Shown here one piece after another: positions 22,703 through 57,955 of a DNA stretch of 64,000 nt; position 1 is the first letter of the stretch, and the number at the start of each line of letters is the position of its first letter. The stretch lies in assembly GCA_009729775.1 (NCBI GenBank), contig GCA_009729775.1_4081.1; one strand, given 5' to 3'. This DNA comes from Escherichia coli (GTDB lineage: Bacteria; Pseudomonadota; Gammaproteobacteria; Enterobacterales; Enterobacteriaceae). The translations under genes and the position numbers were made by a program. The notes beneath the pieces were generated by a model. That model was not told where the DNA came from. It ran no database searches and was given only the letters and a program-made list of their open reading frames with translations.

Positions 22703-22927
22703 CTACTTATTATTTGGGTTTGGTATACAGTACACATATACTAGATTACTAAAGTGTTCAGTACTGGAATATTTTGCTAACTCAGTAATGTGAAAGTTCT
22801 TGTCATAAAACCTTCCACTATTGAATGTTGTTATTTGGCAACAATGTATAGGTCTGAAAATATAATAATAAAATATATCATTTTCAACTACAACAGTATG
22901 GTTTGTATAACGCTCGATTTTCTTCAT
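22703..22927 (-). CDS. hypothetical protein (74 aa)
   Basis: ORF track. Confidence 0.45.
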   Translation of the reverse strand: MKKIERYTNHTVVVENDIFYYYIFRPIHCCQITTFNSGRFYDKNFHITELAKYSSTEHFSNLVYVYCIPNPNNK

Positions 22928-23292
22928 GTGTGGATAATTTCCTTAACCCCGTATTCCATAATTGCTAATGTGCAAATTTCACATGGTTTAGCAGGTACAG
23001 GAATACCATCTTTACTTATCCGTGCAATCAGTAAAGTATGAACATCAGCACGTGCAGCTAATAAGCAAGAAATTTCAGCATGGAGAAATTCACCTTGTGG
23101 ACGTCCAGCACGAATTGCAAAACCTTTCTGTACTGGATGTGTCTGTGTATAAGAATTTGTGCGTGTTGCCAGTACTCGACCTTTTTTATCCAGTGCACGA
23201 GCAATCACACGATACCGCTTGTAGTTCCCTACTTGCTCAATAGGTGGCATCCGGCGTAATTCTTCAACAAGTTTCTCCAATTTACTATTCAT
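22924..23292 (-). CDS. small CDA-fold zinc deaminase (TadA/cytidine-deaminase-like), 122 aa
   Basis: HAEISCLLAA ... PCEICTLAI = H(A/C)E...PCxxC zinc-binding signature; Arg-rich; gene GC ~42% vs ~33% background (hand count). Confidence 0.65.
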   Translation of the reverse strand: MNSKLEKLVEELRRMPPIEQVGNYKRYRVIARALDKKGRVLATRTNSYTQTHPVQKGFAIRAGRPQGEFLHAEISCLLAARADVHTLLIARISKDGIPVPAKPCEICTLAIMEYGVKEIIHT

Positions 23293-24721: not shown

Positions 24722-25098
24722 TTAGTAAAACACGAATTATTACTGATAAGTTCATCAAGTACGTTTTGTACTTCGATAGAATTAATATCAACTTTGTAAT
24801 AATTATAGTTTTTAACTCTAAAATGTTCTTTTGATATATCAACTTTAAATTCAATAATATCAAGATTACCAATAAAATCAGACTTATCAGTTCTTAAATC
24901 CAAAATACCTAATTCCGGTTTTTGTGGTTTACATAAAATCAAACCAAATTTATTTTCTTCAAATGCCTGATTAAACATATCATAATAATCACTAATAACA
25001 AATCTAATATTATCAGTGCTTAACTTTCCTGATTTTCCTTTTTTATAAACAGAAACAATGTTTAGTTCAAAGGTTTTACCAAAGCGTGTGATTTTCAT
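24718..25098 (-). CDS. hypothetical protein (126 aa)
   Basis: ORF track. Confidence 0.55.
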   Translation of the reverse strand: MKITRFGKTFELNIVSVYKKGKSGKLSTDNIRFVISDYYDMFNQAFEENKFGLILCKPQKPELGILDLRTDKSDFIGNLDIIEFKVDISKEHFRVKNYNYYKVDINSIEVQNVLDELISNNSCFTK

Positions 25099-26066
25099 TT
25101 TGGGCTATAACCACTTTTAATTTTAGAAATTACTTTCTTCTCGAAGAACTTACGTGCTTCTTCAATAGTTTCGAATTCTTCACCATCTGTAGTACTAGTT
25201 TTACCAATAGAACCGTACTCAATAATTACTTCACACACTGGAGCATTCAATTCAATATTATAGAATTTGTTTGAAGAATCGTGAACATATTCCAAATGTA
25301 CATTATCAGGAATGTTCTGTACATAATCATAGTTCTTGAAGATAATATCAATCATATTTTCTTCGCCGCGATCAGGAAATATTTCAGTATTATTGAGTAC
25401 TAAACGCTGTGCAGCACGGAACATATCAAAATATTGTTCGCCTTTTTTCAGTTCTTTTGTATCAGAACAGAAATGACCATAATATTCTACATAATCATTC
25501 CAAGGATAAATTCCTTCATCAGCAGTTTCAGACACGTAAGTTTCATCTTGTGGAACTTTAAAACCACGAGTTTTTGGATGAGAAATTAAGCACAGTGAAA
25601 TATTATGACCGATATCTGAATCATCAGTAATACTACCACCAACCATATGAACAACATTTTTAATACTTTCAAAATCTACATCTTCAATTTCATGATACAT
25701 TAAATGTTCTTCAATATTACTTACTAGTAATGAATTACCATTTCCGGCATCGAATTCAAAAATGAAAAGTTCTACACAATCTTCTTCTTTCATTTCAATA
25801 GTATCACTGAGTTTAATATACTCATTTTTTAATTGTTCAATATTTTCATGAGAACCAAAACTATAACGTGAACTGATATAACTACTACCGTCCAACCATC
25901 CCATATCCCAAGGTTCTTCTGACATGTATTCTGAGCTATAGAAATCAGTCAAATCATCTCTCTGAGTACAAACCGTAAGAGAACGAACATTACTAAGACC
26001 TTGAACTTCAAGATTCAGCACTGTAGTATTGCCAATTTTTTGTTCAGAAATAATTTTAGTTTTCAT
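25095..26066 (-). CDS. protein with C-terminal WGR-like domain (323 aa)
   Basis: C-terminus NKFYNIELNAPVCEVIIEYGSIGKTSTTDGEEFETIEEARKFFEKKVISKIKSGY resembles the WGR motif pattern; N-terminal 260 aa unassigned. Confidence 0.55.
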   Translation of the reverse strand: MKTKIISEQKIGNTTVLNLEVQGLSNVRSLTVCTQRDDLTDFYSSEYMSEEPWDMGWLDGSSYISSRYSFGSHENIEQLKNEYIKLSDTIEMKEEDCVELFIFEFDAGNGNSLLVSNIEEHLMYHEIEDVDFESIKNVVHMVGGSITDDSDIGHNISLCLISHPKTRGFKVPQDETYVSETADEGIYPWNDYVEYYGHFCSDTKELKKGEQYFDMFRAAQRLVLNNTEIFPDRGEENMIDIIFKNYDYVQNIPDNVHLEYVHDSSNKFYNIELNAPVCEVIIEYGSIGKTSTTDGEEFETIEEARKFFEKKVISKIKSGYSPK

Positions 26067-28331: not shown

Positions 28332-29771
28332 TTACATATTTTCTTCAGCAAATTCAGCCAGTGGTGAACGAACAACACCTTCTAGTTCGATGACACGACA
28401 ACCTGCCCAGTCTTTAAACTTCTCAGTTACATATGTCAAACCACTGTTAACAGGACTAATAAACTTACTGTCAATCTGACTCAAGTTACCCATAATTACT
28501 ACTTTACAGTTTAACCCTGCTCGTGTCAAGATGGTTTTTGCTTGTGCAGGTGTAATGTTTTGGAATTCATCAACTACTAGAATAGTGTTGGTGAATGAAC
28601 GTCCACGTACAAAGTTTAGTGCTTTAAATTGAATAACATTACGTTTCATAATCTCTTCAATACTACCTTGTGGATTGGCATCATCTTTATGAAGAAACTC
28701 TAACGCATCAATCGCGGCTCCACAGAATGGAATCACTTTTTCTGCTTCTGAACCTGGCAAGAAACCAATATCTTCAAACTGTGAGTCTTGAGTTTTAGAG
28801 AAGATGATTCGGTCGTATTTACGTTTTTCCAGTACTAATTCTAATGCAGTAGCAATTGTAATTAGTGTTTTACCAGTACCAGCAGAACCTAGCAGTACTG
28901 TTAGATGTACATCAGGATCGAGAATACTGTTGATGGCGAGTGCTTGTTGGATATTCTTTGCTTTAATATCCCATACTTTAGCACGTAAAGCCACTGATTG
29001 TCCAATGTCTTGGAATACCAAAATATCTTCTGGTGTTAGTGTTCCATCATCTTCCTCAATTGCTGATTGTCCTTCGTACACAAATAATACGTCAGCATCA
29101 TCATATAGATAATCACCGATGCATAGATTTTGTGGAAGCAGATGTTCAATCAAGCTTTTAGAAATGTAATGATACAAACGACGACCAACTTGTTCGGATT
29201 GAATATTAGTATTGGTTAAGTTGCTGTATACTTCCCAAAAATTGATTTCCAGATGGTGTTGACCAATGTGAATCAAATCACTATCACCAATAACAATATC
29301 ATGGCGATAATCTTGTACCTCGACACCATAACTTAGTGCTTTGATACGCATGTTGATATCACGAGTTACCAGTACTGATTCTGTTGCTAAAGCTACCAGA
29401 ATGATTTTATCATCAGGTACAGTACTTTTGAGAAGGGTTTGAACTTTCTCTTCTGTACCTTTAGTACGAATTAGTGCCTCAGCTTCTTCGTTTGTAATAA
29501 CAAACAATTTGCTATCAGGATTCATATTGGTATGAACATCAGCAATATTAACACCAGTACTACTAATCTCGTCATGTGATGCATCTGCAATAATTGCTTC
29601 AATGTTACGAATAGCAACACGAGCATCGCGTGAAACATCTACATTACGACTCTTAATCGAATCTAATTCTTCCAGTACTGTAAATGGTAGAATGATTGCA
29701 GCACCATCAAAAGCAATAGATGCATTAGGGTCAGATAGTAGTACGTTTGTGTCAATTGTATATTTTTTCAT
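28332..29771 (-). CDS. phoH: PhoH2-type protein: N-terminal PIN domain fused to PhoH-like ATPase (479 aa)
   Basis: PIN signature (YTIDTNVLL, ILPFTVLEELD); Walker A VLLGSAGTGKT and PhoH-like C-terminal half. Confidence 0.85.
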   Translation of the reverse strand: MKKYTIDTNVLLSDPNASIAFDGAAIILPFTVLEELDSIKSRNVDVSRDARVAIRNIEAIIADASHDEISSTGVNIADVHTNMNPDSKLFVITNEEAEALIRTKGTEEKVQTLLKSTVPDDKIILVALATESVLVTRDINMRIKALSYGVEVQDYRHDIVIGDSDLIHIGQHHLEINFWEVYSNLTNTNIQSEQVGRRLYHYISKSLIEHLLPQNLCIGDYLYDDADVLFVYEGQSAIEEDDGTLTPEDILVFQDIGQSVALRAKVWDIKAKNIQQALAINSILDPDVHLTVLLGSAGTGKTLITIATALELVLEKRKYDRIIFSKTQDSQFEDIGFLPGSEAEKVIPFCGAAIDALEFLHKDDANPQGSIEEIMKRNVIQFKALNFVRGRSFTNTILVVDEFQNITPAQAKTILTRAGLNCKVVIMGNLSQIDSKFISPVNSGLTYVTEKFKDWAGCRVIELEGVVRSPLAEFAEENM

Positions 29772-29831: not shown

Positions 29832-30134
29832 TTACATATTTGGTTCGTATTCAACATAGCAACGTGAACCTCGAACCTTTTCTTCCCAGCACTCCTGGTA
29901 AACAAGTTGACCAATTGAAACTGGTTCTCTTGATAGTCCATTACGTACTTCACCACTTTGGGTTTTATACATGAATGAACATTTGGACTCGCTACATTGT
30001 CCTAAACTAACAACTTCTGCGGTATTGTAGTGAATGTTGGTACGCTTAGTGTTCTCGTGATACTGTCCGAACCAAAGAACTCCTGCACCTAACAGAACAG
30101 TACAAATAAGACTTTTGATGTGTGTTTGAATCAT
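29832..30134 (-). CDS. small secreted or membrane-anchored Cys-containing protein (100 aa)
   Basis: N-terminal hydrophobic segment LICTVLLGAGVLWF; five Cys. Confidence 0.5.
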   Translation of the reverse strand: MIQTHIKSLICTVLLGAGVLWFGQYHENTKRTNIHYNTAEVVSLGQCSESKCSFMYKTQSGEVRNGLSREPVSIGQLVYQECWEEKVRGSRCYVEYEPNM

Positions 30135-30451
30135 AATGCGTTAAATCCATTGTTTAAGTATGTTTCAATATTAATTTTACCAACAGGATTACTACTGTGA
30201 ACAAAGTACTCAAACGGTTCTTTAATATTATTATCAAACATATAATCAATAAGAAACTTAGCAAAAGAATATCCAGTCTTTTCGTCTTCGCTCACATCAC
30301 CCAAGTCATGGTCGAATGATACAAATGCTGGAATTCCATTTTCAATAACATATTCACATGCACTTTTAAAGTCACGACATACCACCATATCTTGGTTTGG
30401 ATAATATAGATTTGCATCACGAATATCATCCAAAAACATTGCGTAAGACAT
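30131..30451 (-). CDS. hypothetical protein (106 aa)
   Basis: ORF track; ATGA overlap. Confidence 0.55.
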   Translation of the reverse strand: MSYAMFLDDIRDANLYYPNQDMVVCRDFKSACEYVIENGIPAFVSFDHDLGDVSEDEKTGYSFAKFLIDYMFDNNIKEPFEYFVHSSNPVGKINIETYLNNGFNAL

Positions 30452-30460
30452 GTTAAACTC

Positions 30461-31012
30461 CTATAGATAACTAATTAGTAAGTTTTCTTTTTGAATCAGA
30501 TACTCCAATTCTTGTTTTGCTGTACCGATGAAGTTCTGTGTCATAAGATTATTATATCCCGCTTCTCGATTTTGTCCCTTAGAATAACGAGAAATATGAC
30601 ATAAATTTACACCAGCAACTTCAGCACTCGCATGTTTAGCATTAGTGTATCCATCTCTAATGTGTTTCAACTCGTCATAGCTTACTTCATAGCTAAAACT
30701 ATGACTGTTTGCACCTGGGTAAATTTCAAAAGTTTTGAGTGGTCGAAGATGGGAAACAAAAATATTGTAATCCATTTCTTCTTGAACTTCACGACGCAAC
30801 GCATCTTCTAGTGAGATATCAGTACTTTCAACTGTTCCACCACATCCTCCTAGAAGTCCATCCCAACGTAATTGTAGTAATACCAGATTTACTTCTGGTA
30901 TATCATTTAACTCATAGTTTTTGTAAGGGTTGCATTTTCTTGCAAAGAAATAGCAAAATACAAAATTTGCACGTGAGCCATATTCACCAAAGGGAACTTC
31001 TTTAACACTCAT
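30461..31012 (-). CDS. Nudix-family hydrolase (183 aa)
   Basis: Nudix-box-like GGCGGTVESTDISLEDALRREVQEEMD (REVQEE core; spacing slightly atypical); start overlaps Sir2-like stop (ATGA). Confidence 0.6.
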   Translation of the reverse strand: MSVKEVPFGEYGSRANFVFCYFFARKCNPYKNYELNDIPEVNLVLLQLRWDGLLGGCGGTVESTDISLEDALRREVQEEMDYNIFVSHLRPLKTFEIYPGANSHSFSYEVSYDELKHIRDGYTNAKHASAEVAGVNLCHISRYSKGQNREAGYNNLMTQNFIGTAKQELEYLIQKENLLISYL

Positions 31013-31767
31013 TTCATACGTTCCTTAATTATAGTCTCTAGATGTGGTATTGCTTTGGTTGCTGGCTTGATAACTTTTTCATTAAACAAAAAATCATTAT
31101 CATTTTTACGAATGTTAACATTAACACTATAACATGGTAATGCTGCTGCTAATCTCGACCATACCAGTACTGTATCGCTACTACCAATTACAATAACTGT
31201 ATCATTTTCATTAAGAGATTTCAACACATTATTTCGTTCTTCGTAAATTGGTAAGCGTATACCATCAACATAACGATGATATTCTCCAATCATTACTACA
31301 TTTGGTTTAGCAAAAACATCATGTTTTGGTATGTATGGTTCGTATCCGCAGTTAATAACATTATAATCATCAGAATTGATACTATAATTTTCAATAACTT
31401 CACACAAGTTTCCATGAAGTTTAAGCTCATGACCACCAATACGAGTATAAAGATCGTCCATGTTAGAAGTCATATGAAGGAAGCAATCACCATATTGATC
31501 TTCTAACGATTTTATAAAATAATGCATTGCATTTGGTTCGCATTGTCCCAATTTTACACGTAATGTATTATAGAAAGAATGAACAACATGATATTTTGTA
31601 GTTAAACTAGCAATGTTACATACATCATTAATTTTAAATGTATCCCACAAACCATCATCAAATCGAAAAGGTTCCATCCCACTTTCAACGGAAAGTCCTG
31701 CACCTGATATAATCAGTAATCGTTTTTTACCTTCATTGCTTATAAATTTTTCTGATATCATATTCAA
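31009..31767 (-). CDS. Sir2-family (sirtuin-like, NAD-binding) protein lacking the Zn-ribbon (252 aa)
   Basis: ISGAGLSVESGMEPFR (GAGIS..SGIP.FR), TSNMDDLY (TQNID.LH-like), LHGN, VIVIGSS; no Cys4 module. Confidence 0.8.
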   Translation of the reverse strand: MNMISEKFISNEGKKRLLIISGAGLSVESGMEPFRFDDGLWDTFKINDVCNIASLTTKYHVVHSFYNTLRVKLGQCEPNAMHYFIKSLEDQYGDCFLHMTSNMDDLYTRIGGHELKLHGNLCEVIENYSINSDDYNVINCGYEPYIPKHDVFAKPNVVMIGEYHRYVDGIRLPIYEERNNVLKSLNENDTVIVIGSSDTVLVWSRLAAALPCYSVNVNIRKNDNDFLFNEKVIKPATKAIPHLETIIKERMK

Positions 31768-31770
31768 TCC

Positions 31771-31965
31771 TTATAAAAAACCAATTAAATATATTGATAA
31801 TAACAGAATGATTCCAATATGATAGGCATACATAAAATTATTATCTTTGTGATAACCATTGGATTTCAAGTCCCTGTATAAGCATTTAGCATTGTTATAA
31901 ATTACAACAATAAAAAAAACTATAAAAAAACTCAAAACCCATTCATAAATTGTGTATGCCATCAT
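31771..31965 (-). CDS. small membrane protein (64 aa, 2 TM)
   Basis: two hydrophobic helices; between HslV-like and Sir2-like genes. Confidence 0.45.
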   Translation of the reverse strand: MMAYTIYEWVLSFFIVFFIVVIYNNAKCLYRDLKSNGYHKDNNFMYAYHIGIILLLSIYLIGFL

Positions 31966-31989: not shown

Positions 31990-32586
31990 TTAATACTTTA
32001 AAACATCAAACTCGGCACTTACACTAGTTACATTATCACTGACAATTTTAAAAATTGATTTGATGCGTTCATGTAGTGGCACTTTTGATTCATTTTCAAC
32101 TTCAATATATGCTTGCATTGCTGCAATAGCATGATATGTTCCGCTACCTACGGCGGTGATTCGTGTTTTCGGTTGAAGAACTGAAAAATCTTCTTGAACT
32201 TCATAAATTGTATGATTGTGAAGAATGATGAACTGTCCACCACCTACTTCTTGTGAAGGATCACGAGAACCCCATTCCTCTTTGAACATTTGACGAATAA
32301 TAGGAATAACTTTCAGTACTAAGTACTGTGGAAACGTCTCATTTGCATCTTGCTGTGGTAGATTCAAACTGTAAGTAAGAAGTTGACCCATACGGAATGA
32401 TGTGGTGTAACCAATCGCCATAATTTCTTTTGTACGGGTCAAACCAGCATCATCATTGATTTTAATGAATTCTTTCTCAAATACTTTAGGCTCAGTTTGA
32501 ACGGACTTTGTGAACCCGTTACTTCCCAGTTTGTCCCCTGCAATAAAAGAAGTTACACCATCAGTGTGTGCAATGATACATGTCAT
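31990..32586 (-). CDS. HslV/proteasome-beta-like Ntn-hydrolase peptidase (~198 aa)
   Basis: start set to ATG 32584-32586 giving N-terminus M-TCIIAHTDGVTSFIAGD (cf. HslV TTIVSVRRNGHVVIAGDG, Thr1 nucleophile after Met removal) and RITAVGSGTYHAIAAMQA (cf. HslV LIAIGSGGPYAQAAARA); comparison with HslV from memory. Confidence 0.6.
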   Translation of the reverse strand: MTCIIAHTDGVTSFIAGDKLGSNGFTKSVQTEPKVFEKEFIKINDDAGLTRTKEIMAIGYTTSFRMGQLLTYSLNLPQQDANETFPQYLVLKVIPIIRQMFKEEWGSRDPSQEVGGGQFIILHNHTIYEVQEDFSVLQPKTRITAVGSGTYHAIAAMQAYIEVENESKVPLHERIKSIFKIVSDNVTSVSAEFDVLKY

Positions 32587-32843
32587 AAAATAGCTCCAAT
32601 TGCAAATAAAGTTGTATATAAAATATAAATCAATGTACCTAATAACATTAGACACACCAAATATGATGTTGCCAGAACATAATAAATTATTGCTTCAAAC
32701 TTTGAATTGAACTTCATTGTTGTGTTATCAATAAAGCCATTTTTGTAATCTTTGTAAATGAAAACTGTTAGGAAAAGTACAGTAATATACATCACTACTG
32801 TAGCATAAAAAATAATAGATGTCAAATTTTGGATGTTTGTCAT
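32583..32843 (-). CDS. small membrane protein (86 aa, ~3 TM)
   Basis: hydrophobic helices; stop overlaps the HslV-like start (ATGA). Confidence 0.5.
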   Translation of the reverse strand: MTNIQNLTSIIFYATVVMYITVLFLTVFIYKDYKNGFIDNTTMKFNSKFEAIIYYVLATSYLVCLMLLGTLIYILYTTLFAIGAIL

Positions 32844-32913: not shown

Positions 32914-33522
32914 TTATTGTTTGACTGAACCGTAAAAAACCAGTTCTGGTTTTGTTAATATTACAACATCTTCACCACGCGAACGGCTAACTTTATATAG
33001 AACGTCTGGTGGAATTCCATTTGCAGAATATAGTGTAAATAGAAAACCTACTTTAGTTGCCATTTCTTCAGTAAAAGTTGATAGCTGCCTAACTGATACA
33101 AAAGAATTATCACCGTCTTTAACATTACTTTTAATAGAAATGTTATGAAGTCCCAGTACTGAGCGATTTATCATGTATCGCTTTTCAAAAGCTACACTGA
33201 AGAATACCACAGTACATGCTGAGTTGCAATACCTAGAAACAATTAAATTTATACCATTGTCTCTAACGAAGTTTGCCATTTTAATCCCAGCATCAAAATC
33301 ACCACCTGGCGATGTGATGGTAATGGTATCATAGTGTTCTTTATCATACAACTCCATCATACGCTTTAGTGACCCATCCGTAATATCTGAGATGAAATAT
33401 ACATTACGTGTTTCAGGATTGTACTTTATCACATTTTTACTTTCAACACCAGCACTGGCTGGAAAATTTATCAACATCAGAAGCATTACTGCTTGTACTA
33501 CCTCAAGCCATAGTCTTTTCAT
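32914..33522 (-). CDS. secreted ClpP/S49-fold serine peptidase-like protein (202 aa)
   Basis: signal peptide MKRLWLEVVQAVMLLMLINFPASAG; core ITSPGGDFDAGIKMANFV...CNSACTVVF...VLGLHNIS resembles the ClpP/SppA/NfeD pattern. Confidence 0.55.
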   Translation of the reverse strand: MKRLWLEVVQAVMLLMLINFPASAGVESKNVIKYNPETRNVYFISDITDGSLKRMMELYDKEHYDTITITSPGGDFDAGIKMANFVRDNGINLIVSRYCNSACTVVFFSVAFEKRYMINRSVLGLHNISIKSNVKDGDNSFVSVRQLSTFTEEMATKVGFLFTLYSANGIPPDVLYKVSRSRGEDVVILTKPELVFYGSVKQ

Positions 33523-40683: not shown

Positions 40684-41886
40684 TTATAGATAATACTTTC
40701 CAATATAAAGTGGATTACTAATTGATAGTTGAACGTGACATGGTTTGTCTTGGTAGTAACGAGTGCTTGATGTTTTGCGTTCATTTGGTGGGAAGAATGG
40801 GGAACGATAGCCATTCCATGTACTAAATGATGAGTGTTCATTAATATCAACATCCATTACCATAATCCCATTATCATCAATTTGAACCGGATATGCACTA
40901 AAGCGTTCAAATTTATCATTATAATGGATATTATAATCTCCACTACGCCCATAATAACTACGCGTTGTATTATTACTTACACCAAAAAATACGCGATATG
41001 TTTGTTCATTATCTTTAGTCATAAATGGTACGTTCTCATTGAAACGTCCATTATTCATAAGATCATCAACATTTATTTCTTCGTATTTAATTTTAAGGTC
41101 TTTTGCTTTAAATGATTTATTGTGTACCAGTACTGGAATGTTAGATTCACCTAATGGGTTATGTCTGTTTGTTCTATAGCTTTGCCAAAATTCATTAGCA
41201 AGTTTAATTTCTTCATCTGCCGTAGTCTTCTTATTCAAGAGTGCACGAGGTTCCAGATTGTAATTATCCAAACGTTGATTCAATGCATAAGTTCCACGAG
41301 TACTGTTAAAAAGTAAATGATAAACTGAACTCTTATCGGGATATGCAAATTCCTTAGTTTTCTTTATACAAATTGCATGTACTTTACCGCAGTAATAGTA
41401 ATCTTCTTTAAGATAAGTGAAACCATCACCAACTTTAAGACCTGCTACAGTTTCTTTTTGTTGTTCTTTTTTATTTTCTTTTTCAACTAACTTAGCAAAC
41501 GTTTTTGTTTTACCATTAATTAATTCTAAGTTATTGTTGAAAAACATTGGGTCTACAAAAACACCTTTGATTATATCGTTATTGATAATTAAATCATTCA
41601 TGTTTTTTGCACTAATCATAAATTCAAATCCTTCTGGGTGACGGATTGTGAAATATGTTTCTCGTGCATGAGTTGTTAATTTATCAACTACACAAAATCC
41701 CGTAGTTGGAACGTTGTCAATATATAACGATGGAAGATTGTTCTTCTTTGCCCAGTACTCTGCTCTCTCTTTCTTTGTTTCAAACGCTTTTGTATGTGAT
41801 TTTGTTGCATCGATAATAAAACCATCAACTTGGTTGTGGTTTACATAGGAACGTGCAACAAATAACTTCTCTGGAAAATCCATCAA
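40684..41886 (-). CDS. hypothetical protein (400 aa)
   Basis: ORF track. Confidence 0.6.
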   Translation of the reverse strand: MMDFPEKLFVARSYVNHNQVDGFIIDATKSHTKAFETKKERAEYWAKKNNLPSLYIDNVPTTGFCVVDKLTTHARETYFTIRHPEGFEFMISAKNMNDLIINNDIIKGVFVDPMFFNNNLELINGKTKTFAKLVEKENKKEQQKETVAGLKVGDGFTYLKEDYYYCGKVHAICIKKTKEFAYPDKSSVYHLLFNSTRGTYALNQRLDNYNLEPRALLNKKTTADEEIKLANEFWQSYRTNRHNPLGESNIPVLVHNKSFKAKDLKIKYEEINVDDLMNNGRFNENVPFMTKDNEQTYRVFFGVSNNTTRSYYGRSGDYNIHYNDKFERFSAYPVQIDDNGIMVMDVDINEHSSFSTWNGYRSPFFPPNERKTSSTRYYQDKPCHVQLSISNPLYIGKYYL

Positions 41887-42302
41887 ATAGTCCTCATTGT
41901 ACTGATTGCTTTTAATGTGTCAAACAATGCACCATATTTTACTTGCATTAGTTGATCACCAGCAGGAAGATTCATACGCATAACAGCCATGTCTTCAATC
42001 ATTTCAGACGTACACAGTACTGCTACACAGGTAATAGCATCATTCAATCCAGCTTCATTGAATTTGGCAAACGGAACTTTTCCCTGTTTGCTGAGGTTGT
42101 TATAATAAGAATTTAACTTATCATGTCCACCAGCATTTAGTACTACAATAGTTTCGTGTTCATTGTACCATTCATCAATAATAGTACTGAAAGCAGTACC
42201 TTCATATTCTTTAATTAGTTTAACACCAGCATGGAATGCTTGAATACCAGCTTGGACACCCTGGCAGTACATATTGGTTAAGCAATATAATTTCATTTCC
42301 AT
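41883..42302 (-). CDS. hypothetical protein (139 aa)
   Basis: ORF track. Confidence 0.55.
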   Translation of the reverse strand: MEMKLYCLTNMYCQGVQAGIQAFHAGVKLIKEYEGTAFSTIIDEWYNEHETIVVLNAGGHDKLNSYYNNLSKQGKVPFAKFNEAGLNDAITCVAVLCTSEMIEDMAVMRMNLPAGDQLMQVKYGALFDTLKAISTMRTI

Positions 42303-46746: not shown

Positions 46747-46991
46747 TATAATAAACCTCTCACATAAAACATTGATGAAAATAGATAATCATTAGTACTT
46801 GTGTTTAGTTGTTTAGAAAAGTTATATTTTTTATCTTTATTTTCGTATAAAGACAATCTATAGAACATTTCTATATTTTCTAAGTATTCTTTTTGTAACA
46901 ACATCTGTGTTTTTACATTCATTATAATATACCTTAAAAGAAAAAGGGACCAACATATGATCCCTTTTGTATTAGAAATTTCCTTCTGCAA
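46746..46991 (-). CDS. hypothetical small protein (start uncertain; track start is TTG inside pseT 3' end)
   Basis: ORF track; probable true start at internal ATG (MNVKTQ...). Confidence 0.35.
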   Translation of the reverse strand: MQKEISNTKGIICWSLFLLRYIIMNVKTQMLLQKEYLENIEMFYRLSLYENKDKKYNFSKQLNTSTNDYLFSSMFYVRGLL

Positions 46992-47904
46992 CTTGCATTA
47001 CTTTCAAGCCAAGTAGCTTACGCCACATGAATACAACTTGATCGCGGTCATCATAAACCTTTTTAACATCGTAATGATCAACCACATTTTTCATGTACAG
47101 GTCGAATTTTACAACATCATCGGGACGTTTATCATCTATGTCTCGCATAAACAATGCATCGTAAGGAATACCCCAATTCTTAAGCCACTGTTCGGTATCA
47201 GCACGACACCCTTCAGTACGCCCACTCATGACGATAATCTTGCGTTTATGAAAAACTGCTTCAGCGATAATAGACAAAATAACTTCTTCATCTGGTGTAT
47301 CCTGAAGAACAGTACTTTCATCGTAAGGATTACGACCCCATTTATGAGCAAGAGTACCGTCAATATCAACGATAACAGCAGCTTCTCGTGAATTACCATA
47401 GTAACCAATGTGCATGGCCTTACTATAATAGTACGTATCTGCCATAGTGTCAATGATATTATCTTGTACTGAACGCTCACGCATGAGGTTACGTTTCTTA
47501 CAAAGTTTTACGAACTCTTTAATCTTAAAGAAAACATGAACATCTGCACCACGATCTTCATTCGGTACAAAATCTTCGTAGAAGTTCTTTTCTTTGTAGT
47601 CGTATTCATTATCTTTAGCCCAACGTTTCCATTCATCACGGAAATGTTGTTTAAGGTTCGTATCGGACACAATGATGTTCCAACCATTCTCTGCTGCTGA
47701 ATTTGCTGCACTGAACTGCATTTTAGTTACGTACTGCTCATTAGCGTCGTTGAATTTGTATGCATCATGTGACCCTGCCATTGATTCTCGAATGTCATCA
47801 CGGTTAATGTTGATAGTCTTCGATTTGGCATTTTTAATTTCTTGAACTGCCCATGTGGTTTTACCACAACCAGGCAACCCAACTGTTAGTGTAATAGTTG
47901 GCAT
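46972..47904 (-). CDS. pseT: polynucleotide 5'-kinase / 3'-phosphatase
   Basis: Walker A GLPGCGKTT; HAD phosphatase motif VIVDIDGTLA; overall resemblance to T4 PseT (from memory) including C-terminal QVAEGNF; AAGGAG RBS. Confidence 0.9.
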   Translation of the reverse strand: MPTITLTVGLPGCGKTTWAVQEIKNAKSKTININRDDIRESMAGSHDAYKFNDANEQYVTKMQFSAANSAAENGWNIIVSDTNLKQHFRDEWKRWAKDNEYDYKEKNFYEDFVPNEDRGADVHVFFKIKEFVKLCKKRNLMRERSVQDNIIDTMADTYYYSKAMHIGYYGNSREAAVIVDIDGTLAHKWGRNPYDESTVLQDTPDEEVILSIIAEAVFHKRKIIVMSGRTEGCRADTEQWLKNWGIPYDALFMRDIDDKRPDDVVKFDLYMKNVVDHYDVKKVYDDRDQVVFMWRKLLGLKVMQVAEGNF

Positions 47905-49000: not shown

Positions 49001-50143
49001 CTAAAAATCCTTTAGTACAATTTTCATGTATTTTATAAGAGTCTCTTTGTAATCAACTTTCTTATTGTTATACATTGCAAAGGCCAAGCCCTGACGATTC
49101 AGTTCATTAGTTAAACACTCCTGAACCTTCATTGCGAATTCCTTTCGCTCCAAGTGCTTGTGTTCCTTGACGAAGCTTTCTACTTCATCTTGTAATGCAT
49201 TATAGCACGAAAATACCAATTGTTCCATTCTTAATATCTTTTGCATAGCATATTCATCAGTACTGAACAATTGTTTTAAATCATCACTAGAACCATTTAA
49301 TACTGCTTCATATAAATGAGAATCAATAATAATACTATCTTTTGTAAGATGTAATGAACTGTACCAGTCAGTCTTTATTTTACACATTGTCCCATTATTT
49401 AGGATGCACACAAAACCCTCAATATCAAGCATTTTATGAACTTCCTCCACGCTTTCACGGAAGGTATTTCGTACCGGAAAAGTGTGATGAATATCTTTTC
49501 CAGTCATATTAGTACTGTACTGTGCAAGACATGGAAACTTATCACGTAGTGCTTTACCACATAGCAACTCACCACTCACACGATGACGAACGTTCAGTAC
49601 AAACAGTTGTTCTACCTGATATGGTAATACAATTCGGTACTCTGGGCTTGTATACTCCATATTAACTGTGTAACCTAAACGTTCCGCTTCGTCGATGTAC
49701 TGATACAAATTCTGGTTCTCGTTAATAAGTCGAGTACTGTTAATCGCATGGTCAGAGTACAATGCAGTATGTGATTTACAACGAATCTCACCATCATTAT
49801 CACGGTAAGTACTGATTACTGAACCATCCAACTTAGGCATCACTACTGCAATGTCATTACATGTGGTGTTGGCAGGGAACATTGTAGCAGGATTCTCATA
49901 AGCATTAAAGAACTTTTTCATAGTACGGGCAGCACAACGAATCATTTCACCTTCTTCATCAATTTCCCACATAGATCCACGGGTTTCTAATGCATTGGGT
50001 TGCATGAAATCAGTATATGATGCTAGTCGGTAACTGAATACACGATACGTGCCACCAGCAGGACTTTTATGATCTACATAAAAGAACGCATCGTTTGTAT
50101 TACATAAGTGCATTAAATCTTCATATATTTGCAAAAGGGTCAT
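49001..50143 (-). CDS. rnlA: RNA ligase 1 (T4 Rnl1-like)
   Basis: N-terminus and KxDG adenylation motif (MPKLDGS) closely parallel T4 RnlA as I recall it; 380 aa; AGAGGT RBS. Confidence 0.9.
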   Translation of the reverse strand: MTLLQIYEDLMHLCNTNDAFFYVDHKSPAGGTYRVFSYRLASYTDFMQPNALETRGSMWEIDEEGEMIRCAARTMKKFFNAYENPATMFPANTTCNDIAVVMPKLDGSVISTYRDNDGEIRCKSHTALYSDHAINSTRLINENQNLYQYIDEAERLGYTVNMEYTSPEYRIVLPYQVEQLFVLNVRHRVSGELLCGKALRDKFPCLAQYSTNMTGKDIHHTFPVRNTFRESVEEVHKMLDIEGFVCILNNGTMCKIKTDWYSSLHLTKDSIIIDSHLYEAVLNGSSDDLKQLFSTDEYAMQKILRMEQLVFSCYNALQDEVESFVKEHKHLERKEFAMKVQECLTNELNRQGLAFAMYNNKKVDYKETLIKYMKIVLKDF

Positions 50144-56903: not shown

Positions 56904-57437
56904 TTATTTCCTCATGTATTTTATAACGTCTTCAAATAATTGTATTTTTAAGTCCTCGTCATTTCCAGGTAAAAACTCACGAAAACTAGCAAAATCTTCA
57001 TTTTTTGCGAAGTTACGCATTTGTGTTGAGCTATATTGACTTACATTACGGTCAATACCTGCCTGAATTGCTTTTATACTACAAAAATTATACAACTTAC
57101 CATTGTACATGTCAAGAGTTTTTTGAAAAGAATCAATACGGTCAGAACCACAAATGAAAAGAACATCTAAGTACTTTCCATCCAGTTCTCTCATTATATC
57201 AAATAGATTGTCTTCTGTGTAGATGTTCTCTTGCACTGAAGGATAGAATCCCTCTGTATAATACATTTTTAGTTCAGGTGGGAGTGGGTTTTTTATATTG
57301 TCAGTACTGGTGCTTAGATATATTTTTAAATCAGCATTGTACTGTTCTTGTAATGTTTTGGCCTTTTCAAAAACTAAACCATGTCCACGATGTACAGGAT
57401 TAATACGACCAAACGTTAATACACATGTTTCTTTCAT
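56904..57437 (-). CDS. HxGH-motif nucleotidyltransferase, NMN/NaMN adenylyltransferase-like (177 aa)
   Basis: FGRINPVHRGH (cytidylyltransferase-fold H-x-G-H) and downstream SSTQMR (cf. ISSTxIR); substrate not determinable. Confidence 0.55.
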   Translation of the reverse strand: MKETCVLTFGRINPVHRGHGLVFEKAKTLQEQYNADLKIYLSTSTDNIKNPLPPELKMYYTEGFYPSVQENIYTEDNLFDIMRELDGKYLDVLFICGSDRIDSFQKTLDMYNGKLYNFCSIKAIQAGIDRNVSQYSSTQMRNFAKNEDFASFREFLPGNDEDLKIQLFEDVIKYMRK

Positions 57438-57955
57438 AAATTCTTCATCACCAACCCAAGAGATTTAAGATAATTGATTTTAGCAGTGGTTAAGTACTTA
57501 TCCAGTACTATCAGACACGAAGGAAATGGTGCTGAATCTGTTTTCTTATCGGGTTCTTCTGGTATACCAAATCGTAATCTTCCCTTAATAAAACAAATAC
57601 AATCACATATTTTAGCAGCATAATCCTGAAAAGCAATTGTGTCGGTTCTTGAGGGTACAAGAATAACTACAGTTGCCCCGTTATTATATGCATCTACTGC
57701 TTTAGATAACCAAGTTTTCAAGTCACTGTATGGTGGATTCAACCAAACTATATTATTTCCCCAATCCTGTGATAGTGAATCATCTTCTGGAGTGAAAAAA
57801 TTATCACACAATGCAGTCTCATCTACACAAGCAGCATCAAGTGTAAATCCCCATAACTCATCCAAATCTTCAAAGAAATCTTTGGGAGTTGTCCAGTTAT
57901 CTTTTCCAGTACTGAAATGTACTGAATGTTTTTTCGAAGCATCCTTCTTCGACAT
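57434..57955 (-). CDS. phage-type DNA N6-adenine methyltransferase (173 aa)
   Basis: NPPY catalytic motif (WLNPPYSD); size typical of small phage Dam-like MTases. Confidence 0.6.
   Translation of the reverse strand: MSKKDASKKHSVHFSTGKDNWTTPKDFFEDLDELWGFTLDAACVDETALCDNFFTPEDDSLSQDWGNNIVWLNPPYSDLKTWLSKAVDAYNNGATVVILVPSRTDTIAFQDYAAKICDCICFIKGRLRFGIPEEPDKKTDSAPFPSCLIVLDKYLTTAKINYLKSLGLVMKNL

Follow-up and report, generated by a model that had tools for sequence, protein, structure and literature searches.

A window of 64,000 nucleotides from an Escherichia coli assembly (NCBI GenBank GCA_009729775.1, contig GCA_009729775.1_4081.1), by which we mean the whole stretch of DNA that was analyzed, contains a pair of overlapping genes for a Sir2-family protein and a Nudix-box protein. 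Judged by comparison with related phages, the pair opens a conserved five-gene jumbo-phage operon, in which a CobB-like sirtuin is followed by a NUDT16/X29-like Nudix enzyme, a receiver-like cREC protein, a membrane protein, and a PIN-PhoH protein. With a probability of about 40%, we favor the reading that the operon encodes an NAD+-using RNA-repair system resembling Tpt1/KptA, which is essentially the hypothesis advanced in the passages of PMC9503650 that treat this neighborhood.

Over this stretch, the window is ~98% identical to the Escherichia phages SHEFM2K, PBECO4, 121Q, and phAPEC6 and to other Asteriusvirus jumbo phages. More than 30 GenBank records already annotate the two genes, which are labeled in Asteriusvirus as "Sir2 (NAD-dependent deacetylase)" or "cobB" and as "nudix hydrolase". 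The finding is real and functionally meaningful but not new, since the genes are annotated and the module has been published with a mechanistic hypothesis; as the result of a genome scan it adds little to the GenBank names and the published neighborhood. What we add is the NUDT16-family identity of the Nudix protein, quantified synteny and fusion counts, the adjacency of NARP2 and Acb1 in sister genera together with its absence at the present locus, and the loss of the zinc ribbon as a trait of a phage sirtuin clade.

The sirtuin and the Nudix hydrolase

The list of open reading frames (ORFs) placed both genes at the coordinates of the original prediction, on the minus strand. The mechanical span of the Sir2-like ORF, 31009..31767 (-), starts at an in-frame TTG at 31767. 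The true start is likely the ATG at 31761, since it is preceded at a distance of 7 nt by an AAGGA ribosome-binding site, homologues begin with MI-S, and the RefSeq entry of PBECO4 uses the same start. This gives a sirtuin of 250 amino acids (aa) at 31009..31761 (-), followed by a 183-aa Nudix protein at 30461..31012 (-). As originally reported, the stop of the first gene overlaps the start of the second, the sequence at 31009-31012 (-) reading ATGA (TGA stop, ATG start), and this arrangement is kept in 121Q. Across the homologous 32 kb as annotated in PBECO4, 4-nt overlaps occur in 7 of 54 adjacent gene pairs and overlaps of any length in 19, and in a Hallingskeid-like sister lineage a 122-aa ORF (L016:7750-8118), itself joined to Sir2 by an ATGA overlap, stands between Sir2 and Nudix. 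Therefore, the overlap alone carries little information, and direct translational coupling of the two genes is not universal, whereas the operon is. Promoter and terminator scans of the window gave no signal above the shuffled expectation.

The Sir2-family assignment held. The motifs quoted for it, GAGLSVESGMEPFR, TSNMDDLY, and VIVIGSS, are all present in the translation, and the only Pfam match of the protein is SIR2 (PF02146; 73.1 bits against a cut-off of 24, profile positions 1-178 of 180). Its best sequence match in the PDB is CobB (6rxj/1s5p; E ~1e-22), with SIRT5 also among the best solved relatives. An AlphaFold2 model built from an alignment of 26 homologues reached a pLDDT of 91.2, and the best 50 PDB neighbors of this model in Foldseek were all sirtuin deacylases, led by CobB (TM score 0.77-0.86, 28% identity). 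Residues G22, G24, S29, N102, D104, H118, and G119 are invariant in the 26 homologues, as is Tyr66 of the acyl pocket; the catalytic His and Asn, whose absence had been named as grounds for giving up the assignment, are thus retained. By its sequence matches and its predicted structure, the first gene thus encodes a genuine CobB-like sirtuin. With E. coli CobB and the class III sirtuins it shares the Rossmann core, the GAGxS and T-x-N-x-D motifs, and the catalytic HG.

It differs from CobB on the acceptor side. The Cys4 zinc ribbon was not found, the segment from the catalytic HG to an FGE-type motif holding two Cys and no CxxC, and an insert of roughly 13 residues follows the FGE-type motif beside the substrate cleft. 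In the alignment, read by eye, Leu69 stands where SIRT5 and CobB have the Arg that contacts the acyl carboxylate. The scores against the NCBIfam CobB equivalogs were far under their cut-offs (NF001755, 93.1 bits against 318; NF040867, 85 bits against 320). A zinc-less module, HG..E(V/I)...(I/V)GY...KPN(V)(F)FGE, is common to ~70 of 81 phage sirtuins, those of T5-like and rV5-like phages included, and CxxC...CxxC is kept by a few phage sirtuins and by distant cellular homologues (P0056-P0060). From these alignments, loss of the zinc ribbon appears to mark a large sirtuin clade that is specific to phages and descends from CobB-like sirtuins. Homologues of the sirtuin were present in ~975 phage records.

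The original prediction had likewise noted the missing Cys4 ribbon but had taken it as a sign of a defense-type SIR2 domain, and this part did not stand. None of the PADLOC defense families matched the sirtuin at E<=0.01, no defense SIR2 structure was among the 50 best Foldseek neighbors of its model, and no sensor or partner of defense SIR2 proteins (SLOG, HerA, pAgo, TIR) is fused or adjacent to it, its neighbors being Nudix, cREC, the membrane protein, PIN-PhoH, and an HslV-like peptidase. A defense-type NADase such as ThsA, DSR1/2, SIR2-HerA, or SPARSA was rejected on the lack of a PADLOC match, the classical SIR2 Pfam match alone, and the CobB structural matches. Pfam and Foldseek also gave a sirtuin fold and not the ADP-ribosyltransferase (ART) fold of Tpt1.

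The second gene encodes, by its profile and PDB matches, a genuine NUDT16/X29-like Nudix enzyme, which bears out the reported Nudix box and gives it a family. It matched the Pfam Nudt16-like family (PF22327) with 68.5 bits against a cut-off of 27 and the Pfam NUDIX family with 29.7 bits, and its PDB matches were Xenopus X29 (1u20, E 2.1e-12) and human NUDT16 (5wji, E 8.8e-12), over residues 37-179. The Nudix box R74-E75-x2-E78-E79 is intact; among 72 family members, G55, G58, G59, E75, E78, and E79 are invariant and R74 is found in 66. Its homology to NUDT16/X29 spans the full length and extends to the C-terminal helix and to the unusual "D-I-S-L-E-D/E" spacing within the Nudix box; the protein differs in its identity of at most ~30%, in being phage-encoded, and in having cREC as an operon partner and, in sister phages, as a fusion partner. 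The protein was assigned to PHROG 9999. The Nudt16-like family is rare: of 1.84 billion cluster representatives, 244 matched it at E<=1e-3, and its phage members occur in 75 records only, almost all of them Rak2-like. Cluster look-ups for bacterial contexts of the family yielded metagenomic sequences only. In metagenomic proteins (P0124, P0159, P0190), Nudt16-like domains are fused to Ham1 ITPase (P0124) or to HD_4, a RelA/SpoT-type hydrolase, which hints that parts of the family may act on small nucleotides such as IDP/ITP or alarmones.

The vertebrate NUDT16/X29 proteins are known as a U8 snoRNA decapping enzyme, an IDP hydrolase, and an ADP-ribose pyrophosphatase acting on modified proteins and RNA ends. 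Human NUDT16 strips the ADP-ribose that TRPT1 (human Tpt1) and PARP10 place on RNA phosphate ends (PMC6582358).

The five-gene block in related phages

The third gene of the block (30131..30451, minus strand; 106 aa) encodes a cREC domain, a receiver-like domain described as "cyclic-phosphate processing" (Pfam, 80 bits); its start is preceded by an AGGAG site and lies 9 nt past the end of the Nudix gene. Its stop overlaps, again as ATGA, the start of a gene for a conserved 100-aa predicted membrane protein (29832..30134, minus strand; PHROG 14661 "membrane protein"). The last gene begins 60 nt farther on (28332..29771, minus strand) and encodes a 479-aa PIN + PhoH protein of the PhoH2 type, a predicted RNA nuclease/ATPase (Pfam PIN_4, 71.9 bits; PhoH, 150.1 bits). 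The Pfam scan detected no Macro domain in the five-gene block.

Neighbors were mapped by profiles and phmmer in 80 viral loci with sirtuin relatives. Wherever a Rak2-like jumbo-phage locus extended far enough to tell (15 loci), the order was Sir2, Nudt16-like Nudix, cREC, membrane protein, PIN-PhoH. The Rak2-like loci compared came from 121Q, RaK2, Serratia BF, Yersinia fHe-Yen9-04, GAP32, CBB, and metagenomic relatives, with Sir2 identities of 41-100%. In nine of these 15 complete loci, Nudix and cREC form a single protein of ~300 aa, as Pfam confirmed for phage BF and for one metagenomic representative. Conserved gene order and gene fusions thus support the functional link between Sir2 and Nudix that had been proposed; the proposal had nevertheless missed the most informative partners, namely cREC directly downstream, PIN-PhoH, and two RNA repair enzymes encoded elsewhere in the window. 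These two are a T4-type polynucleotide kinase-phosphatase, Pnkp (46972..47904, minus strand; Pfam AAA_33, and HAD_PNKP with 148.5 bits), and a T4 Rnl1-type RNA ligase (49001..50143, minus strand; Pfam RNA_lig_T4_1, 56.5 bits, and T4_Rnl1_C, 62.4 bits). Together they make up a full T4-type RNA repair pair, which shares the strand of the Sir2 block and lies 16-19 kb away from it, outside the operon. No tRNA genes were found in the 64-kb window.

Linkage of the same proteins recurs in other lineages. Seven rV5-like loci show the order phosphoesterase-Rnl1-cREC-Sir2 with the same zinc-less sirtuin clade, 27 T5-like loci have a sirtuin of this clade roughly 3-5 kb from PhoH, and Nudt16-like genes lie 3-6 kb from such a sirtuin in further lineages (L055, L074, L075, L091). 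In a locus without a sirtuin (L096:3994-7320), cREC overlaps the last part of an Rnl2-type RNA ligase gene, and after cREC come genes for an Rnl1-type ligase, a kinase, and a metallophosphoesterase; this context indicates that the association of cREC with RNA repair does not depend on NAD-using enzymes. In Malaciobacter, cREC adjoins a metallophosphoesterase. One cREC context had RecA, GreA, and SbcC-like neighbors and no NAD or RNA-repair link, and three of six contexts, all on large metagenomic contigs, were uninformative.

The genes upstream of the block differ between genera. In 15 of 16 Rak2-like loci, RaK2, BF, and GAP32 among them, an NMNAT-Nudix (NatV-like) gene and a NAMPT gene, which constitute a NARP2 pair, lie just upstream of the Sir2 block, RaK2 gp037 carrying CTP_transf_like and NUDIX domains. 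Only the 121Q/PBECO4 lineage lacks this pair at the Sir2 locus. Neither tblastn nor phmmer returned NAMPT or NatV homologues in the 64-kb window, and Asteriusvirus was absent from the 60 best phage NAMPT matches, which cover every other Rak2-like genus at 50-56% identity. At least four further phage groups (L058, L064, L091, and four ~146-kb phages) likewise have NAMPT beside a sirtuin of the zinc-less clade.

Immediately before Sir2, 14 of the 16 Rak2-like loci carry a 148-aa 2H gene annotated as "RNA ligase" (e.g., in GAP32, and in BF at L003:2507-2953). Its product passes the Pfam threshold for Acb1, the anti-CBASS 2H phosphodiesterase (56 bits), and its significant PDB sequence matches are to Acb1 only. 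Consequently, the "2H" of the published RNA-repair neighborhood may be an anti-CBASS enzyme. No homologue of the BF gene was found anywhere in the window. The position is occupied by a hydrophobic 64-aa ORF (31771..31965, minus strand) that ends ~7 nt before the Sir2 start and has a homologue in 121Q only, apparently a lineage-specific filler. Directly upstream, where sister genera carry NARP2, are genes for an HslV-family peptidase-like protein (31990..32655, minus strand; PHROG 1040) and a weakly ClpP-like protease (32914..33522, minus strand).

Candidate roles of the operon

Starting from the observed domain identities, intact catalytic residues, operon architecture, conservation, and fusions, we ranked a function at RNA ends first among the readings considered, as the one best supported. 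The zinc-less sirtuin would use NAD+, expel nicotinamide, and move ADP-ribose onto a phosphate of damaged RNA, the candidate acceptor being the 2'-phosphate left once a 2',3'-cyclic end is opened or, alternatively, a terminal phosphate. It would then resolve the ADP-ribose adduct through the ribose 2''-OH, which would amount to Tpt1/KptA chemistry on another fold. The receiver-like cREC, with Asp-based phosphoryl chemistry, and the NUDT16-like Nudix would work together, often as one polypeptide; their joint task would be either the healing of RNA ends or the breakdown of ADP-ribose (cyclic) phosphate or of RNA capped with ADP-ribose, with PIN-PhoH handling the RNA substrate. We infer RNA phosphate rather than acyl-lysine as the probable substrate, a division of labor between Nudix and cREC, and a role in repairing tRNA or other RNA that host nucleases have cleaved.

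The fusions, the repeated linkage to RNA ligase, PhoH, and cREC, the NUDT16 identity of the Nudix protein, and the remodeled acceptor side of the sirtuin favor this RNA-end model. A changed acceptor substrate would be consistent with a protein that has kept its catalytic and NAD+-binding residues, lost its four zinc cysteines, and gained an insert by the substrate cleft. The model is further supported by the conserved five-gene order (15/15) with nine Nudix-cREC fusions, as well as by the absence of Macro from a block whose window encodes Pnkp and Rnl1. The sirtuin mechanism comprises an attack on C1'' and a subsequent attack of the 2'-OH that gives a 1',2'-cyclic intermediate. This two-step course parallels that of Tpt1, whose reaction steps are summarized in PMC7075268, and thereby lends the model support.

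Several points weigh against a repair function. We found no experimental study, biochemical or genetic, of any phage sirtuin or any cREC protein in the literature. The closest characterized relatives, CobB and SIRT5, are deacylases, and the invariance of Tyr66 in the alignment suggests that deacylation may still be possible. T4-type Pnkp itself removes 2',3'-cyclic, 3'-, and 2'-phosphates, so that a Pnkp/Rnl1 pathway leaves no 2'-phosphate in need of a Tpt1-like step, and PIN nucleases yield 5'-P/3'-OH ends rather than cyclic phosphates. In the sister genera, the position of the block beside NARP2 and an Acb1-like gene suggests a counter-defense island, which would fit at least equally well, and the Ham1 ITPase and HD_4 fusions of Nudt16-like domains appear to point to small-nucleotide substrates.

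It is somewhat unlikely, though a serious possibility, that the sirtuin acts instead as a CobB-like protein lysine deacylase that reprograms host or phage proteins, while Nudix and cREC destroy the resulting O-acyl-ADP-ribose and, in phages with NAMPT, nicotinamide is recycled. Its best sequence and structural matches are the deacylases CobB and SIRT5, N102, D104, H118, and Tyr66 are invariant, and GenBank annotators already use CobB or deacylase names. NAMPT, which adjoins Sir2 in several phage lineages, would relieve nicotinamide inhibition, and O-acetyl-ADP-ribose is cleaved by Nudix enzymes, among them yeast Ysa1 and mouse NUDT5. However, the peptide-binding small domain of characterized deacylases is built by four zinc cysteines, all of which are gone here, the 85-93 bits obtained fall well short of the 318-320 set for the CobB equivalogs, and Leu69 replaces the acyl-carboxylate Arg. 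Deacylation would also leave unexplained the recurring linkage to RNA ligase, cREC, and PhoH and the fusion of Nudix to a cyclic-phosphate-type domain. Less probable still is that the genes share no pathway, the Nudix protein being a nucleotide-pool sanitizer of the IDP/ITP type or an RNA 5'-end pyrophosphohydrolase that merely lies beside an unrelated sirtuin in a dense array of early genes; we consider this clearly improbable. The ordinary frequency of 4-nt overlaps (7/54), the Nudt16-like fusions to Ham1 ITPase and HD_4, the Nudix of Aeromonas phage LAh_6 without any sirtuin nearby, and the extra ORF between Sir2 and Nudix in one lineage speak for simple adjacency. Yet the gene order is strictly kept down to ~41-46% identity in both proteins, Nudt16-like genes lie close to the same sirtuin clade in other lineages, and Nudix is fused to cREC, a domain that itself tracks with this clade in rV5-like phages.

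A role in counter-defense, which we hold to be unlikely, would make the genes part of a battle over NAD+ fought alongside NARP2 and Acb1. Nudix-cREC would destroy signals or toxins derived from ADP-ribose (cyclic ADP-ribose isomers, the ADP-ribose-1''-phosphate of RES NADases, or ADP-ribose cyclic phosphate), and the sirtuin would make, exchange, or consume them. The NARP2 pair upstream in 15 of 16 Rak2-like loci, the Acb1-family 2H gene directly before Sir2 in 14, and NAMPT beside the zinc-less clade elsewhere agree with such a role. NARP2 (KVP40-type Nampt + NatV) experimentally counters NAD-depleting defenses (10.1101/2024.02.11.579819), and the Poa1p-like Macro phosphatase of NARP1 operons, an enzyme of the "tRNA-splicing by-product" type, proved to be anti-RES, which indicates that enzymes with the look of RNA repair can serve counter-defense (10.64898/2026.01.28.702374). 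The phage phosphatase of the latter preprint has a Macro domain and was thus ruled out as a cREC protein. On the other hand, an NAD+ consumer made by the phage is hard to square with NAD+ protection, Asteriusvirus keeps the five-gene block although NARP2 and 2H are absent at the locus and in the window, rV5-like phages put the sirtuin and cREC with RNA ligase instead, and no sponge or signal-binding domain is present. Least likely of all is a specific version in which the sirtuin and Nudix-cREC constitute a new counter-defense pathway of NAD+ and ADP-ribose phosphate that extends NARP2 and has nothing to do with RNA repair. In that version, nicotinamide exchange by the sirtuin would turn defense-made ADP-ribose-1''-phosphate and nicotinamide back into NAD+, and Nudix-cREC would convert other ADP-ribose (cyclic) phosphates to AMP and phosphoribosyl units that feed NAMPT. 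As a separate point, cleavage of ADP-ribose-1''-phosphate by Nudix would yield AMP and ribose-1,5-bisphosphate. E. coli PhnN converts ribose-1,5-bisphosphate to PRPP, the co-substrate of NAMPT; in sister phages with NARP2, this step would close an NAD+ loop.

If the RNA-repair reading is true, this would be the earliest demonstration of a sirtuin acting on nucleic acid, the sirtuin would be a replacement of Tpt1 unrelated to it by homology, and first activities would be gained for the cREC domain and for a NUDT16 homologue of a prokaryotic virus. If the counter-defense reading is true, the genes would open a new branch of the NAD+-centered arms race between phage and host, beside NARP1, NARP2, and NARP3. 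Since the sirtuin occurs in ~975 phage records, those of T5-like and rV5-like therapeutic phages included, one biochemical study would annotate many genomes.

Other genes of the window and known systems

The gene at 56904..57437 (minus strand), previously described as NMNAT-like and counted as part of a distributed NAD toolkit, encodes a nucleotidyltransferase with a HIGH motif that remained below the curated thresholds (Pfam CTP_transf_like, 17.2 bits against a cut-off of 21; TIGR00482, 19.9 bits against 112). It had no PDB sequence match and no similarity to the NatV of RaK2. The gene, which is uncharacterized, was assigned to PHROG 3041 ("cytidyltransferase"), and tblastn placed it in the cyanophage "cytidylyltransferase" family, found in 562 phage records, mostly of cyanophages. 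The NMNAT identity was not supported on these grounds, and the gene is not part of the Sir2-Nudix module. BF, K64-1, and fHe-Yen9-04 carry a gene of this family in addition to NatV; the gene is therefore no evidence for an NAD toolkit. Its start is overlapped by the stop of a Dam-type N6-adenine DNA methyltransferase gene (57434..57955, minus strand; 110.8 bits), and the pairing is annotated in related coliphages too.

Three further minus-strand genes were noted. A 323-aa protein (25095..26066) has a C-terminal WGR domain (41.8 bits) as its sole recognizable domain, with no ART domain detected; WGR domains normally accompany PARP catalytic domains. A 139-aa protein (41883..42302) matches PTH2, peptidyl-tRNA hydrolase 2, with 26.8 bits, its gene being flanked by a pair of genes for an ATP-dependent DNA ligase and an unknown 400-aa protein and by two metallophosphoesterase genes. 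A 122-aa ORF (22924..23292), whose translation was read by eye, contains HAE...PCEIC, resembling the zinc motif of CMP/dCMP-type deaminases.

The cREC domain was defined by Iyer et al. in 2021 (PMC7824862). The direction of the pathway, which the original prediction had left open, is the subject of a published hypothesis. The comparative genomics of Iyer, Burroughs, Anand, de Souza, and Aravind (Viruses 2022; PMC9503650) describes, in the relevant passages, a sirtuin-centered "RNA repair" neighborhood of type 1 in jumbo phages, with Serratia phage BF AQW88637.1 as prototype. There, a distinct phage sirtuin clade is proposed to remove RNA 2'-phosphates in the manner of KptA/Tpt1, with partners that resolve cyclic phosphates or degrade ADPr>P. 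These passages do not identify the Nudix protein as NUDT16-like and do not mention the adjacency of NARP2.

The present locus agrees with the type 1 neighborhood, as described in those passages, in its sirtuin clade, its Nudix, cREC, and PIN-domain partners, linked as genes of one block without an adjacent Macro gene, and in their order. Its Sir2 and Nudix proteins are 43% and 46% identical to those of phage BF. It differs in having Nudix and cREC as separate genes and in lacking both the linked 2H phosphoesterase (Acb1-like) gene and adjacent NAMPT and NMNAT-Nudix genes. The NARP2 systems of the sister genera (RaK2, BF, GAP32, CBB, and others) place NAMPT and NMNAT-Nudix directly upstream of the same Sir2 block, in contrast to the window, which has no homologue of NAMPT or NatV. 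NARP3 (PnuC + NadR) is unrelated to the Sir2-Nudix module.

Compared with Tpt1/KptA and its partners Cpd1 (2H) and Poa1 (Macro), the proposed logic is alike: NAD+ would be used, nicotinamide freed, and an ADP-ribose cyclic phosphate made and then dismantled. The pairing of a sirtuin with an eraser of the NUDT16 type also mirrors that of TRPT1 and NUDT16 in vitro (PMC6582358). The proteins themselves are not homologous, a sirtuin standing in place of the ART fold, cREC in place of 2H, and Nudix in place of Macro, so that the relation to Tpt1/KptA would be one of functional analogy and not of membership.

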